Source of the DNA: a virus
Virus genome (UHGV): UHGV-0078760
Direction: 5' to 3' (one strand)
DNA: 15,304 nucleotides
Part shown: one piece after another, positions 4,898-13,528 of the stretch
How the letters are laid out: the number at the start of each line of letters is the position of its first letter
Numbering within the stretch: position 1 is the stretch's first letter
The notes under the pieces: generated by a model
The model's input: only the letters and a program-made list of their open reading frames with translations
Told to the model about the DNA's origin: nothing
Database searches by the model: none
Made by a program: the position numbers and the translations under genes

Positions 4898-5269
4898 TCA
4901 CTGAGCCGCTTTAAGCTTTCCATCCACCGCGCCAGTGATCCCGAACAGCTGACCCTGATCTTCCTGCAGGATGGTGAGCTTCCCGCCTTTGTTGACCCAC
5001 ATCGGGGTTTCGGTTGTGTCCTCTTCGGAGGCTTTACCACGCGGTGTTGGGGTGCTGTAGTTCAGCTTGTGCTTGATCTTGACGCGCTTCTCTTCAACGG
5101 AATTACCCATGCGCTCAAAATCAAATGTGAGGACTACTTTGCCTTTGTTGCCGTTGTTCAGAACGCCAAGCGCGGTGGTATTAAGTGCTGCCGCGATTTT
5201 GTTCATGAACACGCCGGCATCCAGTTCGCCAAGGAAATCTGGCACTACGGTCATGCGGTCATTACTCAT
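4898..5269 (-). CDS. Hypothetical early-left prophage protein (123 aa from internal ATG); first gene downstream of the PL leader
   Basis: Track ORF begins with TTG at 5356; the ATG at 5269 (MSNDRMTVV...) has GAGG about 8 nt upstream and is preferred. Confidence 0.55.
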   Translation of the reverse strand: MSNDRMTVVPDFLGELDAGVFMNKIAAALNTTALGVLNNGNKGKVVLTFDFERMGNSVEEKRVKIKHKLNYSTPTPRGKASEEDTTETPMWVNKGGKLTILQEDQGQLFGITGAVDGKLKAAQ

Positions 5270-5776
5270 GGTTTTACCCTCGTTAAGGCGGCTGCAACCG
5301 CCGAACTTTCTCCATACACAACAGAGAAGGGCACCTGCATTTGTCGGCGACTGCAATCGCCATCCTCTTGCCCGGGGGGATTGGGTTATGAGCCCGTCGC
5401 CCGGTGATACCCTTTTCTGTTGCGCCCTGAAAAAGGCTGGCGGTTACCGGACAAACGTGAAAACACCGGGCCGCCAGAACAGGGAGTTACTTGTTATTGC
5501 TTTGGCCTGCTTTTAACCACATCAGGCGTGGTGGTAGGTATCTTCGGGCGGGGTGCTAAGGGGGTGATTAGCCCTTGCCCTTAACACTCCTGCTGGTTTT
5601 GGTATTCCTGGCTTGGGTATCGCCACCAGCTATAGGAATTTGACTACGAGTTGCGGTTAATCAGACCGCGCCTCTGTTACCCCTCCCGAAGACACCTGTC
5701 AGCGAATCATCCGGTTATTCATATGCCACCGGCGGCTACTTCGTGGGCGTCCTGCCTGTTCGCTGTTTGTTTATTT

Positions 5777-5828
5777 AGTGTAGGATAACTTACAAAGAAA
5801 GGTCAAGAGGAAATGTTGGATAACTTAC
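5777..5828 (-). promoter_or_regulatory. PL-like leftward early promoter with two operator-like inverted repeats (OL)
   Basis: On minus strand: -35 TTGACC (5801-5806) - 18 nt - -10 TACACT (5777-5782). Operator-like 14-mers GTAAGTTATCCTAC (5780-5793, overlapping spacer and -10) and GTAAGTTATCCAAC (5815-5828). Mirrors the PR arrangement. Confidence 0.5.
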
Positions 5829-5840
5829 ATTGAGGGGTGA

Positions 5841-5863
5841 AAAAAAACCGGGATAACCCGGTT
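5841..5863 (-). terminator. Rho-independent terminator downstream of the repressor gene
   Basis: Stem AACCGGG / CCCGGTT with ATAA loop; on the minus strand the hairpin is followed by an 8-U tract; sits 3 bp downstream of the cI stop. Confidence 0.7.
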
Positions 5864-5866
5864 TCC

Positions 5867-6523
5867 TTATAAATCCATTATCACTTGTCTTACTAATCCG
5901 ACCAAACGGCAGTTGCCGTTTACCTCGAGCATCCTGTAGTTGGGATTGAGAGGTACAAGGTATTTAAGCGGACCATCAATGACGAATTTTTTTATAGTGG
6001 CTTCGTCACTTCCCATTAGCTGAGCAATGACAATTTTACCATTTGCTTGGCTGGCATCTCCAAAGTCAGGTTCTACGACGACGAGAGAGCCCTCCGGGAT
6101 GCTTGGTGCGCCATTTGGGTTAGTCATTGAGTCACCGCGGACTATTAGTGCAAAAGCGCTCTCTGAAACAGCTGCTGAAGTGTAAACCCAGTCTTGAATG
6201 TCTCGTTCCGTTATCGCACCGCTATTGGCAGTCCATTCCCCGGCTTGCACCCACGTTAAAACGGGAACTGATCTAATTCCGAATCTCTGCTCTGGGTTCA
6301 TTGTTGGCGGTTGTTGTTTCCCGTCATCCTTACCCTCCAGCAACCACTGCGGTGTCTTTTCAAGAGCAGCCGCAAGCGCCTGAAGGTTCTCACCGCCAGG
6401 TTTATAGTCACCAGATTCCCAGCCGGTGATCGTGACGCGGTTTACCCCGACAAGCTTTGCCAGGACGGATTGCGTCATCTTCAGCTCTTTTCGTCTGCTT
6501 CGGATTCGATCATTCATTTTCAT
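5867..6523 (-). CDS. cI: CI-like phage repressor (N-terminal HTH, C-terminal S24/LexA-like autopeptidase)
   Basis: N-terminal HTH segment (MTQSVLAKLVGVNRVTITGWESG); C-terminal S24 signature with GDSM serine motif and downstream lysine (..IVRGDSMTNP...KKF..). Start placed at ATG 6523 (alt 6517); the track's longer N-terminus would run into the operator region. Confidence 0.85.
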   Translation of the reverse strand: MKMNDRIRSRRKELKMTQSVLAKLVGVNRVTITGWESGDYKPGGENLQALAAALEKTPQWLLEGKDDGKQQPPTMNPEQRFGIRSVPVLTWVQAGEWTANSGAITERDIQDWVYTSAAVSESAFALIVRGDSMTNPNGAPSIPEGSLVVVEPDFGDASQANGKIVIAQLMGSDEATIKKFVIDGPLKYLVPLNPNYRMLEVNGNCRLVGLVRQVIMDL

Positions 6524-6588
6524 GTAGGCAATCCTACCATTTTCTAATGTAGGAGTGCTTGACCATTTTATGTAAGATATCCTACTAT
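6524..6588. promoter_or_regulatory. OR/PR region: rightward promoter PR with operator-like inverted repeats; candidate PRM on the opposite strand
   Basis: Plus strand: -35 TTGACC (6559-6564) - 18 nt - -10 TACTAT (6583-6588). Operator-like 14-mers GTAGGCAATCCTAC (6524-6537, abutting the cI ATG) and GTAAGATATCCTAC (6572-6585, over the -10). Weak minus-strand candidate: -35 TTACAT, -10 TACATT. Confidence 0.6.
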
Positions 6589-6622
6589 CTATGCACTGCA
6601 TGACCTAACTCCAGAGGGAAAA

Positions 6623-6820
6623 ATGAAAAAGAATGACGTTATCTCTTACTTCGGTGGCGTAGGGAAAACCGCCAAGGCGCTGAATATCTCCCACGCATCT
6701 GTATCGGGCTGGGATGAAGTTATCCCAAAGGGGAGGGCATTTGAGATCCAGGCGCTGACGAAAGGTGATTTGAAAGTTAACCAATCCCTTTATGAAAAGC
6801 GTAGTCATTCGGCTGCGTGA
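6623..6820 (+). CDS. cro: Cro-like small HTH regulator (YdaS-type Cro/C1 HTH)
   Basis: 65-aa ORF divergent from cI; GAGGG SD 5 nt upstream of ATG; HTH segment GGVGKTAKALNISHASVSGW; transcribed from the PR candidate. Confidence 0.8.
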   Translation: MKKNDVISYFGGVGKTAKALNISHASVSGWDEVIPKGRAFEIQALTKGDLKVNQSLYEKRSHSAA

Positions 6821-6848
6821 TTAAAACCACAGAAAATAGGGGACAACC

Positions 6849-7415
6849 GTGGATAAACAACACTGGAAAGTAGAGCGACAACCAGCTTGGCTGGTGGCTG
6901 CAATCAAAAGAACGATCGCCGAAATGTCTGGTGGGTATGCCGAAGCAGCTGAATGGCTTGGTCTGTACCGCGCTGGAAAACTCTCAACGGATGCACTCTA
7001 TAACCGACTACGTAACGAAGGTGATCAAATTTTCCCGCTTGAGTGGGCGATGGTGCTTCAGGATGCGAGCGGTACTAAGTATGTCACCGATGCGATAGCC
7101 CGCCGTAGTGGTGGTGTATTCGTTCCGCTGGTGGAAGTAGATGATCTTGATAACGGCGATATCAACCAGCGTCTGATGGAGTCAATCGAATGGATTGGCA
7201 AACACTCGCAGTACCTGCGTAAGGCAACCGCCGACGGGGTTATTGATCCGGCAGAACGTGAGCAGATTGAAGAGAACAGTTATCAGGTAATGGCTAAGTG
7301 GCAGGAGCATTTGACGCTGCTATTCCGTGTTTTCTGCGCGCCAGAAAAGAATGACGCCCGCGAGTGTGCAGCTCCGGGCGCCTTGGCGAACAACTCTTCG
7401 AGTATGGAGAAATAA
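6849..7415 (+). CDS. YdaT-like protein in the CII position (putative lysis/lysogeny regulator)
   Basis: 188-aa ORF directly after cro; GTG start with AGGGGA SD 5 nt upstream. The YdaS/YdaT-type pairing is recalled from Rac-like prophages; homology not verified. Confidence 0.65.
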   Translation: MDKQHWKVERQPAWLVAAIKRTIAEMSGGYAEAAEWLGLYRAGKLSTDALYNRLRNEGDQIFPLEWAMVLQDASGTKYVTDAIARRSGGVFVPLVEVDDLDNGDINQRLMESIEWIGKHSQYLRKATADGVIDPAEREQIEENSYQVMAKWQEHLTLLFRVFCAPEKNDARECAAPGALANNSSSMEK

Positions 7416-7587
7416 TCCGCATGAGCAGTTTAACGGCTTTTAACCGTCTACCGCAACTCAGGATGATCCCGGTTTCGGGTACTCCGTTGTTTCGGTATGA
7501 ACGCAGATTATCAAACCGCTGGATTCCGTGTAACCACAGTAGGGCGGTTTCAATTGTGGGGGTCTACAACCGGAGGGCAAAACGCCA

Positions 7588-7767
7588 GTGCGCGAACTTA
7601 ACCGAAGGTTCAAAGACCACCGCGGAGTGTCTGTCCGTGTTATCCGCTGGGAACCAGAAACACAACGCGTTATCTACCTGCGTGATGGCTACCCGCACGA
7701 ATGCTTCAGCCCACTTGAGCATTTCAGGCAAAAGTTCAGGGAGATAACGGACGATCATGAGCACTAA
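7588..7767 (+). CDS. Possible small ORF, 59 aa (MRELNRRFKDHRGVSVRVIRWEPETQRVIYLRDGYPHECFSPLEHFRQKFREITDDHEH); GTG start
   Basis: Manual translation; protein-like composition in contrast to the S/R-rich 108-aa track ORF (7364..7747) in another frame. GGAGG 10 nt upstream of GTG; 3' end overlaps the initiator gene by 11 nt. Speculative. Confidence 0.25.
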   Translation: MRELNRRFKDHRGVSVRVIRWEPETQRVIYLRDGYPHECFSPLEHFRQKFREITDDHEH

Positions 7768-8614
7768 ATTAACCGGCTACGTATGGGATGGTTGCGCGGC
7801 GTCGGGCATGAAGTTGTCTAGTGTCGCGATCATGGCGCGCCTTGCTGATTTTAGCAGCGATGAGGGGGTGTGCTGGCCGTCTATTGAAACTATCGCTCGC
7901 CAGCTTGGCGCAGGGCCGAGCACTATCAGAACGGCAATCGCTAAGCTTGAAAAAGATGGCTGGCTCACGCGTACACAGCGCCGTAATGGTAACCGTAATG
8001 CTTCGAACGTTTACCGCCTGAATGTGGCGAAACTTCAGGCTGCCGCATTTTCTCAACTGTCAGATTCTGACACGTCAAAATCTGACGCATCAAATTTTGA
8101 CACCTCAAAAGCTGACCCGTCGAAATCTGGCAAAAATGGCGGTTTTGACCCGTCAGAATCTGGCGGGGATCCGTCAGTAAAATCAAAACAAGATCCACAA
8201 GTAACTTCAAAACCCTCTTGTCCGGTTGCGGCGCAACCAGACCCTGAAGTCGTGATTACTGATCAGGCAATTTTGGTTCTGACCCATTTGAACCAGATCA
8301 GCGGATCCCGGTATCAGAAATCAAAAACATCCCTGGAGAACATCCGTGCCCGACTGCGTGAGGGATACAGCGTTGCAGACCTGCAACTTGTTATCGACCT
8401 GAAGCATGAGCACTGGCACGAGAACGACGAGCAGTACCAGTACATGCGTCCGGAAACGCTGTTCGGCCCGAAGAAATTCGAGAGCTATCTGCAAAGCGCT
8501 ACCTGCTGGGAGCAGAAGGGACGGCCTAAACGGGCTGACTGGGGCGCGAAAAAGCGCGATGTGATGGCTTTTGGTCCGGTTGAAACAACGATTCCAGAGG
8601 GGTTCAGAGGATGA
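7757..8614 (+). CDS. Replication initiator protein (N-terminal winged-helix DNA-binding domain; C-terminal conserved phage replication domain); lambda O analogue
   Basis: 285 aa in the O position; low-complexity Ser/Asp/Lys-rich central linker encoded by DNA iterons; C-terminal segment (..ILVLTHLNQISGSRYQ...ETLFGPKKFESYL..) recalled as the Phg_2220_C-type domain of phage replication proteins. Confidence 0.8.
   Translation: MSTKLTGYVWDGCAASGMKLSSVAIMARLADFSSDEGVCWPSIETIARQLGAGPSTIRTAIAKLEKDGWLTRTQRRNGNRNASNVYRLNVAKLQAAAFSQLSDSDTSKSDASNFDTSKADPSKSGKNGGFDPSESGGDPSVKSKQDPQVTSKPSCPVAAQPDPEVVITDQAILVLTHLNQISGSRYQKSKTSLENIRARLREGYSVADLQLVIDLKHEHWHENDEQYQYMRPETLFGPKKFESYLQSATCWEQKGRPKRADWGAKKRDVMAFGPVETTIPEGFRG
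8066..8180. repeat. Candidate origin of replication: iterons of a 10-bp near-palindrome TGACnCnTCA at about 15-bp spacing inside the initiator gene, followed by an A-rich tract
   Basis: TGACACGTCA 8068-8077, TGACGCATCA 8083-8092, TGACACCTCA 8098-8107, TGACCCGTCG 8113-8122, TGACCCGTCA 8146-8155, plus degenerate copies; A-rich 8177-8215. Analogous to lambda ori inside gene O. Confidence 0.6.
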
Positions 8615-12005: not shown

Positions 12006-12026
12006 GTGTATGGAGCGCAAAGAAGC

Positions 12027-12716
12027 ATGAATCAACAAGACCTGAATTTTGTAAGAATAGAATTGCGCCGCGCGCTACCTGACCTCTCTGGGGGAACAAA
12101 AGGGCAGCTTGAGGCTTTCAGTGAACACCCACCAGCAGACAAAAATGCCACCCCGCGCCGTGGAATTCATCTCGTCGAACTTGAAGGAGAGAAGGGGCCA
12201 CGCTTTGTTCACTCGCTTTCCGCGCCACTGTATGTACTGGAAACACGCAGCCGCCGCAGGCCAATGCCGCCGATAAAAGATGCGGAATTTGAGTCCGCGC
12301 CGTGGCGTAGGGCAGTGTCCGCGCTTAGTGGATACCAGCAGGCCTGGTTGCGGTACTGCTACGGCTTTGACCTGAGCTATAAGCACCAGGTGATGATGTG
12401 TGAATACGTCTGGAAAACTTATCAGAAATGCCTGGGTGAAAACTCGCTTCAGGAGCGCGTAGTAAAGAAACTGATAGGCCTGGTATGGCTGGCCGGGCAG
12501 GAAATTGCCGCAACCAGAAATAATGAAACCTATAAAGACTATGCTGGTGCAGCGTTGGCCCGCATGGTTAGCGTTGACCGTTCGACATGGTTGCGTGTCT
12601 ATTCAGGGCACTGGGCTGGGTTAAAGGCCGCTTTTACGCAGCTTGATGAATCTGCGTTGGCCATGGCTCTTGAATACTATGAGGAAGAAGAAGCCCTCAA
12701 AGTGGCAGAAATGTGA
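12027..12716 (+). CDS. Putative late-gene antiterminator (Q-like), assigned mainly by position
   Basis: 229 aa from ATG 12027; immediately upstream of a promoter plus intrinsic terminator arrangement preceding the late/lysis genes. No sequence similarity to lambda Q that I can recognise; a different Q family is possible. Confidence 0.5.
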   Translation: MNQQDLNFVRIELRRALPDLSGGTKGQLEAFSEHPPADKNATPRRGIHLVELEGEKGPRFVHSLSAPLYVLETRSRRRPMPPIKDAEFESAPWRRAVSALSGYQQAWLRYCYGFDLSYKHQVMMCEYVWKTYQKCLGENSLQERVVKKLIGLVWLAGQEIAATRNNETYKDYAGAALARMVSVDRSTWLRVYSGHWAGLKAAFTQLDESALAMALEYYEEEEALKVAEM

Positions 12717-12865: not shown

Positions 12866-13528
12866 ATGGATATAATTCATTTATTGGAAGTGCTTAATCC
12901 TCTTCAAAATGTAATAACTGTCAAAATTGATAATGACAAAGGGGGCTTTGCGACGTTCAGTGATTTCATAATTGCAGTCGCCCCTACAGTGATTGCTGGT
13001 TTTGCTATTTGGTTTTCTTATAGACAATTCAAAATTAGTCAGAGCAAACAAATTGAACAGTTTAACCATGGAATTAAGCAACAAATTAATGAGTTAAAAA
13101 TAAATACACAACTTGCTACTGAAGTGGAATTAATGAAAGATGAAAGCAAGGCCTTAAGAGAAGCTTTTGTCAGTTTTGTAGATGTCGCTTCATCGATTTA
13201 TAGCAGCAAGTCTGATTTTAAACAGTACGCTGAACGGTTAGGTGAAGATGCACTTAAGCATCAACAGTTATCCTGTCAAGCCATAATTGCTAACAGCAGT
13301 AAGTTCTTGCAAGCTAGATTGTTACTAATCTCTTATCTTAACCTTGATGATCCCGAAGAAAAAAACTTCTACGATTGCATTATTGCTATCGGCGATTGTG
13401 CATTTAATGGCGACGGAACAGGAGAGGATTTAGGGATATTGCAAGGTAAGGGCGCAAGTCTTTGCTTTAAATTAATAAAGAAGAAGCGCGATGCAATATT
13501 AAGCTTAGTAGATAACATCACCGACTAA
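12866..13528 (+). CDS. AT-rich moron: hypothetical protein with a single N-proximal transmembrane helix (FIIAVAPTVIAGFAIWF) and a largely helical soluble region; function unknown
   Basis: 220-aa ORF, ATG with AGGTGA SD 6 nt upstream; codon composition visibly more AT-rich than flanking genes; own extended -10 (TGgTATGAT, 12833-12841) just upstream; hairpin GCCTCTT/AAGAGGC (13543-13559) downstream. Confidence 0.7.
   Translation: MDIIHLLEVLNPLQNVITVKIDNDKGGFATFSDFIIAVAPTVIAGFAIWFSYRQFKISQSKQIEQFNHGIKQQINELKINTQLATEVELMKDESKALREAFVSFVDVASSIYSSKSDFKQYAERLGEDALKHQQLSCQAIIANSSKFLQARLLLISYLNLDDPEEKNFYDCIIAIGDCAFNGDGTGEDLGILQGKGASLCFKLIKKKRDAILSLVDNITD

Follow-up and report, generated by a model that had tools for sequence, protein, structure and literature searches.

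In phage lambda the immediate-early left operon has the layout PL-nutL-N-tL1, in which N occupies the slot before the first terminator. Structured RNAs can also promote terminator read-through; the put elements do so in cis via the beta-prime zinc-binding domain of RNA polymerase, and in Bacillus the EAR RNA of eps operons, ~120 nt long and containing a pseudoknot, likewise promotes read-through without a protein. To our knowledge there are many lambdoid prophages that have no N gene, and how their early operons pass terminators is mostly unknown. The put RNAs are ~70 nt long and fold as two stem-loops (PMC9378689). Here we compare these systems with the early-left leader of a prophage, a gene-free segment of ~500 nt that consists of three RNA modules in series, A, B and C.

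The stretch of DNA that was analysed (the window; 15,304 nt of the UHGV virus genome UHGV-0078760) contains the immunity and early region of a lambdoid prophage of the ST64B/SfV/CPS-53 type. Opposite a LexA-family cI-like repressor gene (6601-5867, minus strand) stand a cro-like gene (6623-6820, plus strand) and a YmfL-like gene. A Q-type late antiterminator gene (12006-12716; PF06323) to the right of the replication genes is the only antiterminator gene in the window, and DNA methylase and holin genes lie to its right. A 220-residue ORF between the Q-like antiterminator and the DNA methylase (12866-13528, plus strand) has no Pfam or PHROG match. Just past the repressor stop codon (5869-5867) there is a terminator-like hairpin with a T-run (AAACCGGGTTATCCCGGTTTTTTTT; 5840-5864, minus strand), which ends the repressor transcript upstream of PL and is context, outside the leader.

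A promoter scan identifies a PL-like promoter and its operators at 5777-5829 (minus strand). The promoter is of the sigma-70 type (TTGACC-18-TACACT, 5806-5777, minus strand), with the -35 hexamer TTGACC at 5806-5801 and the -10 hexamer TACACT at 5782-5777, and we infer that transcription starts near 5770. It is flanked by two copies of the 15-mer TGTAAGWTATCCWAC (5829-5815 and 5794-5780, minus strand), and a third copy, bringing the total in the window to three, is located in the PR/PRM region (6571-6585, plus strand); three matches were obtained in none of 200 shuffles. These copies are likely to be repressor operators common to PL and PR/PRM, and the promoter, the copies that bracket it and the copy at PR/PRM together indicate a repressor-controlled PL downstream of the cI-like gene. 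The first early-left gene is yfdP (4898-5269, minus strand), coding for a 123-residue YfdP-family protein (PF27127, phrog_204), and is followed by the gene for YfdQ (4841-4014, minus strand; PF10065, DUF2303), which is the RefSeq name in relatives; both Pfam assignments were made on identical proteins. The next gene (3912-3346, minus strand) we take to be YfdR-like from a reading of its sequence.

The original prediction held that no N-like antiterminator gene follows PL, that the leader has no minus-strand ORF of note, and that it is an untranslated, GC-rich and structured RNA, all of which is upheld here. Between 5770 and 5270 on the minus strand the only ORFs of at least 30 residues are a TTG-started extension of yfdP and a 34-residue GTG-started ORF in element B (5626-5522), and the homologous leaders vary by indels of 1, 2 and 7 nt, so coding is unlikely in the leader, including the yfdP 5' UTR. 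A missed small arginine-rich ORF, which the prediction itself had named as one finding that would count against it, was looked for in the leader and not found, and tblastn searches of the window with N (a hand-entered query), Nun and the products of two small ORFs of relatives described below, F46 and F66, gave no homologues, the E values for N and Nun being above 0.1. A tRNA/tmRNA scan was likewise negative. The leader is 55.3% GC, compared with 49.6% for the window, and its minimum free energy of -201 kcal/mol (z = -5.8) is equalled by none of 100 shuffles; covariation is seen in two separate modules. The A/B/C anatomy, the pseudoknot and kissing loop, and the nature of B as an exchangeable cassette belonging to a wider RNA family go beyond what had been predicted.

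The arrangement resembles that of lambda in having a repressor-controlled PL, a leader RNA element, a payload and a first terminator before the delayed-early genes. It differs in that the payload is RNA and not protein, and that the window contains no boxA, boxB or arginine-rich protein; in the leader no boxA (GCUCUUUAACAA-like) is present with up to two mismatches. The ops element (GGCGGTAGnnTG) that defines RfaH/ops systems is also absent from the leader with up to one mismatch. EAR differs in being from an unrelated taxon and in being located inside an operon and not in a phage leader, and it has no Rfam match in the window.

It had also been suggested that the leader could give protein-independent, HK022 put-like antitermination; homology to put is not supported, and action in the manner of put is a proposal taken up below as the leading functional idea. 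A covariance model (R2) built from HK022 putL and putR, HK639 putL and one further locus (L153) recovers its training sequences at 65-92 bits and finds nothing in the window or in ST64B; even unfiltered over 5200-7800, its highest score is 6.8 bits. Nor does the window contain the put consensus (CGAACGGC...GUCGG...GGCGGG...CAAU, in two stem-loops). The likeness to put is one of placement, since A and B, as put, are structured RNAs just past an early promoter and upstream of terminators, with no N, and in HK639 a single left-operon putL-like copy is annotated, similar to the one B per phage. The structures are different, in that A is a closed three-stem RNA and B an RNA of 135-165 nt in which a closing stem is combined with a kissing loop and a pseudoknot, and activity on RNA polymerase has been shown for put whereas for A and B it is hypothesised. 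HK639 also has an annotated 'M3-like RNA' after a cII-like gene (L143:37910-37969), besides its putL-like RNA. Other small RNAs were considered as counterparts and rejected; svsR/co293 sits at the 3' end of cI (PMC12803456), and STnc100 and the Pas sRNAs belong with the Q/late region.

Element A (5700-5765, minus strand) is 66 nt long, folds into three stems and opens the PL transcript, beginning ~5 nt past the presumed start. Stem a pairs 5765-5759 with 5706-5700, stem b 5756-5754 with 5748-5746, and stem c 5732-5728 with 5715-5711. Across 51 phage records, in which it is mostly unannotated, A is 85-100% identical; these include the records of ST64B, SfV, SfII, SfIV, mEp460, ZF40, YeP1-3 and an Aeromonas phage, and the carriers are phages of Salmonella, Escherichia, Shigella, Yersinia, Klebsiella, Pectobacterium, Pantoea, Providencia and Aeromonas. 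Among 88 distinct sequences, 97.6% of alignment cells pair in the three-stem fold compared to 16-44% with slid partners, and three of the five pairs of stem c have changed on both sides (G-C to C-G, U-A to G-C or A-U, and G-C to A-U); stem b has neither covariation nor energy support in this set. A is the universal element of these leaders and may be the true cis site.

Element B (5536-5697, minus strand; numbered here with position 1 at 5697) is a 162-nt pseudoknotted RNA of what we designate type II. Its 13-bp closing stem P1 (1-13/150-162) is separated by an invariant A/G from the 4-bp stem P2 (15-18/145-148), and the remaining helices are P3 (19-23/112-116), P4 (29-32/42-45), P5 (59-63/90-94), P6 (74-76/86-88) and P7 (117-120/136-139). 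The internal loop between P5 and P6 pairs with the strand 3' of P5 to form a pseudoknot, T1 (68-73/101-106), and six bases each of the P4 and P7 loops form a kissing loop (35-40, UGAUUA, with 128-133, UAAUCA), for which the variants UGACUA/UAGUCA, UGACCA/UGGUCA, UGAUUA/UAAUCA and UGAUAA/UUAUCA are found. The minimum free energy of B has a z score of -4.9. In the type II alignment 97.4% of cells pair compared with 36-45% when slid, and P1, P4, the kissing loop, T1 and P7 all contain pairs changed on both sides. In the alignment of the second architecture, type I, 92.6% pair compared with 34-47%, with 15 pairs changed on both sides and a covariation score of 0.223 (at most 0.09 when slid, and reached in none of 500 shuffles); the family was gathered by sequence patterns and has ~8 related sequence types, so these values reflect few independent covariation events.

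The two architectures differ in the relationship of P3 to T1. In type I a CCGU segment can pair with either the 5' segment of P3 or the internal-loop segment of T1, and both partners track its changes; in type II, to which the window belongs, P3 and T1 use different nucleotides and are able to form together. A further type I pairing, AACCC with GGGUU, is 85.6% paired with little covariation and is proposed tentatively. A pseudoknot between the P6 loop (ACCC) and a GGG at positions 124-126 was dropped, as the type II G's vary without compensation. The core UUCGGGAGGGG...CCCCGCCCGAA in P1 and P2 is kept in 49 of 55 members found by a pattern that omits it, which suggests recognition by a conserved partner, and two of the six members without the core have compensatory changes in outer P1. 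The window's B has the P1/P2 core, the P4-P7 kissing loop and the early-left leader location that define the family, and all of its helices pair. A covariance model of type I (R1) matches the window once, at B and over its full length (55.7 bits, E = 1e-12), and the match is strand-asymmetric, with the transcribed strand scoring 55.7 bits and the opposite strand 37.8 bits; in ST64B the values are 156 and 24 bits.

The B family as collected comprises 146 fetched prophage loci, of which 93 are type I (133-153 nt, ~7 sequence types, ST64B among them) and 53 type II. The collection began with exact-word scans of IMG/VR, in which B is found at 90% identity or above in dozens of prophage contigs, and was extended by a pattern based on its ends and a second pattern avoiding them. 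Its boundaries are sharp against unrelated flanks, and ST64B has a diverged B with the same ends. R1 finds one copy in the window, with none on the PR side, and a single copy in the ST64B genome as a whole; HK022, HK639 and two fetched E. coli loci (L001 and L002) give no match. No blastn match to B was obtained in complete E. coli genomes, phage records or plasmids, and a type I B was found by blastn in a single one of 5,426 complete E. coli genomes. A scan of one genome per species with a 19-mer from B recovered only Atlantibacter sp., Klebsiella spallanzanii and two MAG contigs, and the hosts, where identified, are Salmonella, Klebsiella and Atlantibacter. Rfam 15 gives no match anywhere in the window at the gathering threshold, and matches with E values up to 10 over 5200-5900 are at chance level. 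No published description of B was found in the literature searched, including ncRNA discovery work (PMC11109978 and the Minerva preprint), and the family is apparently undescribed.

In each of the 58 first-round IMG/VR loci examined, B points the same way as the early-left operon; the repressors upstream of it belong to three different families, and yfdP/yfdQ-type genes lie downstream. A directly precedes B in ~65% of loci, as it does in the window, and elsewhere B is preceded by the end of a small ORF, either F66 (phrog_12911) or F46. F46 is a 70-residue ORF (MNAAQRRKAYRKHPKAGEVV...) between A and B in several prophages (for example in the region L010:6883-7095, or -218 to -6 relative to B, and in L012, L020 and L022). 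The window lacks F46, for which Pfam and PHROG give no match; its N-terminus, MNAAQRRKAYRK, resembles the arginine-rich RNA-binding motif of lambdoid N proteins. In most distinct flanks the conserved terminator comes 21 or 58 nt after B, the distance in the window being 58 nt. Instead of it, in seven related loci (L070:5690-5701, L076:397-408, L077:4853-4864, L088, L115, L128 and L135) an exact rrn-type boxA, GCTCTTTAACAA, is located after a short hairpin ~35 nt past B, which suggests that putative Nus-factor antitermination sites cluster beside B in some phages. Taken with the arginine-rich ORF upstream of B in others, it appears that antitermination parts tend to cluster here.

Alignment with E. 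coli relatives, with matches in 1,393 of 5,426 complete genomes, shows that they have the first 66 nt and the last 266 nt of the leader in common with the window, with other sequence in place of the 162 nt in between. In these genomes A and C are separated by a 121-residue ORF with a ClpX-type C4 zinc finger (phrog_20296; for example L001:3098-3463 in E. coli ECONIH4). Because the zinc-finger ORF takes the place of B while A, C and the terminator stay, B is dispensable, and read-through in those relatives cannot depend on it. As judged from these comparisons, the slot before the first terminator holds alternative predicted payloads, either B alone, F46 or F66 together with B, or the zinc-finger ORF.

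Module C begins with a spacer (ACCACCACGCCUGAUGUGGUUAAAAGCAGGCC...; 5478-5535, minus strand) between B and the terminator that is conserved in the E. coli relatives. It contains the motif CCACCNCGCCTGATGTGGTNAAAAGCAGGC (5503-5535, minus strand), which lies 3' of B in the window and most relatives, and of which a near-copy is found 5' of B in two loci (L008 and L030). The spacer folds no better than chance (z = 0.08), and a hairpin at 5535-5503 has no covariation or energy support. Next is the intrinsic-terminator hairpin (5430-5477, minus strand), which the original prediction had correctly located at about 5425-5480; CUGGCGG at 5477-5471 pairs with CCGCCAG at 5443-5437, followed by CC and U5 (5434-5430). 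It has a free energy of -18.5 kcal/mol (z = -2.4) and the GC-rich stem and U-tract of an intrinsic terminator, with the evidence for a 3' end coming from its ST64B homologue. By inspection, the only complementarity between the 3' strand of P2 in B and the terminator is 5 bp (GGCGG/CCGCC), and no alternative pairing of B with the terminator is seen. The remainder of module C is the structured 5' UTR of yfdP (5270-5429, minus strand), in which RNAalifold analysis of 26 homologues predicts a long-range stem (approximately 5423-5406 with 5335-5318) and inner hairpins, with 98.6% of cells paired and some pairs changed on both sides; the hairpin GGCGGUUGCAGCCGCC (5302-5287) is positioned just upstream of the Shine-Dalgarno sequence GAGGG (5281-5277).

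The homologous region of ST64B is transcribed. STnc1310 is an annotated, uncharacterised ncRNA of S. Typhimurium D23580 (2099207-2099280) located downstream of the ST64B repressor (PMC7067206), and it maps to ST64B at L063:3210-3283, give or take 1 nt. Its 5' end falls within the 3' strand of P1 of the ST64B B, and its 3' end at the U-tract of the conserved hairpin, for which the homologue of the window's terminator is at L063:3241-3283; it is a 74-nt 3' fragment that takes in the final 10 nt of B and then the spacer and terminator hairpin, with A and the body of B outside it. STnc1310 has no Rfam model, and is the only prior label that we found at the locus, covering just the terminator fragment. 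The position of its 3' end indicates that the hairpin marks a real transcript end. In peroxide and NO shock, which its authors read as ST64B induction, STnc1310 rises from ~200 (~44-510) TPM to ~2,300, with yfdP going from ~70 to ~1,200 and yfdQ from ~20 to ~200 (PMC7067206). Read-through of the hairpin is thus partial. The suggestion that the hairpin is a terminator or attenuator of the early-left operon thus finds support in the ST64B homologue, with the downstream genes rising alongside the STnc1310 transcript. The ratio of yfdP to STnc1310 barely differs between induced and uninduced cells, small-RNA and mRNA TPMs being not directly comparable, and its near constancy means that the data do not show induced antitermination. 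In uninduced cells the level of STnc1310 is similar to that of cI. The ST64B leader also has a ~260-nt insertion, absent from the window, that duplicates a terminator-like segment. A part of this insertion (L063:3355-3473) matches STnc100 at 35 bits (E = 8e-6), below the gathering score of 47, and this is the only Rfam match in the ST64B leader, outside A and B.

The reading that we tentatively favour, at somewhat below even confidence, is that the leader is an RNA-only immediate-early module controlling terminator read-through in prophages of the ST64B/SfV type. Loss of the repressor would allow PL to fire, and the first ~340 nt of the transcript would fold into A and then B before RNA polymerase meets the intrinsic terminator at 5477-5430. 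The terminator is expected to stop part of the transcription, serving as an attenuator and insulator, for which there is backing in the transcript data from its homologue, and folded A, B or both would act in cis on the elongation complex such that it reads through into yfdP, yfdQ, yfdR and beyond; this cis action is proposed from position and conservation. The leader would be a functional counterpart of lambda nutL plus N, or of HK022 put, while related to neither, with B as a payload that can be exchanged at the site ahead of the first terminator. In accord with this are the position and orientation of B, the covariation in A and B, the transcript data for the terminator homologue, and the absence of N, Nun, boxA, ops and put from the window. 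Against a role for B in particular are its presence in one copy per phage, with none on the PR side, and the E. coli relatives that keep A and the terminator without B. We regard as rather doubtful the narrower proposal that B, possibly with A, represents a new class of RNA-only processive antiterminator in the slot of lambda N, structurally unrelated to put and swappable for protein factors, these being the C4 zinc-finger ORF or an N-like ORF with an arginine-rich N-terminus.

A different reading, possible if on the unlikely side, is that B is a stand-alone accessory RNA gene, similar to a moron, that acts in trans and has no part in read-through. The unit from PL to the terminator would then make an abundant RNA of ~340 nt, processed at P1, with a host or a competing phage as its target and a role, for example, as a protein sponge, decoy or anti-defence RNA. 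Its cassette-like nature with sharp boundaries and its replacement by a protein-coding gene in relatives are consistent with this, as are the long closing stem and compact pseudoknotted fold, which are typical of autonomous RNAs, and the invariant core, which hints that a specific partner binds it. In ST64B, STnc1310 begins within the 3' strand of P1, as would fit cleavage at P1, and trans action has been demonstrated for other prophage RNAs (PMC7067206, PMC12803456). However, B is never found outside the early-left leader, reversed or with its own promoter, its spacing from the terminator is fixed, no released B species has been reported, and no candidate target is evident.

Control of read-through by the leader must also be weighed against the structures being passive, with A and B shielding the leader from RNase E or Rho and the terminator insulating the lytic genes from cI read-through. 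The 500-nt untranslated leader would otherwise be exposed to Rho, A is at the very 5' end of the transcript, and cI and the leader are co-oriented, with the similar levels of STnc1310 and cI in uninduced cells being as expected if the terminator blocks read-through. This fails to explain why loops and junctions of A are 85-100% conserved from Aeromonas to Escherichia or why B has a conserved kissing loop and pseudoknot, and we consider it unlikely as an account of the leader. It is more improbable still that B is a riboswitch-like or conformation-switching sensor of a small molecule, ion or protein that sets the use of the terminator. There is no expression platform overlapping P1, the terminator is 21 or 58 nt away across an unrelated spacer, P3 and T1 are compatible in type II because they use distinct nucleotides, and the downstream genes give no hint of a metabolite, even though the unpaired nucleotides in the complex junction of B are highly conserved, B is immediately upstream of an intrinsic terminator, and in type I its CCGU segment can pair with either its P3 or its T1 partner. 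Least credible, and very improbable, is that B works at the DNA level, for instance as a MITE whose terminal inverted repeats are 13 bp long, or hides a small protein gene. The P1 arms do resemble such repeats, B lies between unrelated flanks and a 34-residue ORF overlaps it; against this, there is one B per phage in a single orientation and a single slot and not dispersed copies, blastn finds no E. coli chromosomal copies, the internal helices and loop-loop pairs have compensatory changes, the G-U pairs and a model score that differs between the strands favour RNA, and the ORF contains 1-nt indels, is missing from type I and has no PHROG match.

What is new here is the RNA family B and its widely conserved, mostly unannotated companion A; the kind of control to which they would belong, that of early phage transcription by leader RNA, is already known. 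The locus offers two compact RNAs supported by covariation at the place where early read-through gets decided, together with a terminator that has in vivo 3'-end evidence in a homologue, and the natural swaps of RNA, zinc-finger ORF, and arginine-rich ORF plus RNA are ready-made controls. If A or B modifies RNA polymerase it would provide a second model of RNA antitermination after put, and a structurally different one; were B an RNA-only antiterminator, lambdoid phages would have a second way of solving early antitermination with RNA. Should B work in trans, it would count as a new phage RNA, abundant and immediate-early. In either case the B family merits an Rfam entry, and unannotated gaps of 600-1,300 nt in genomes of ST64B- and SfV-type phages can now be annotated. 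In one relative whose YfdP is identical, ~1.3 kb without genes follow an F66-like ORF (L151:1657-3001) and include a type I B at 1665-1828, so that some leaders in the family are much longer.
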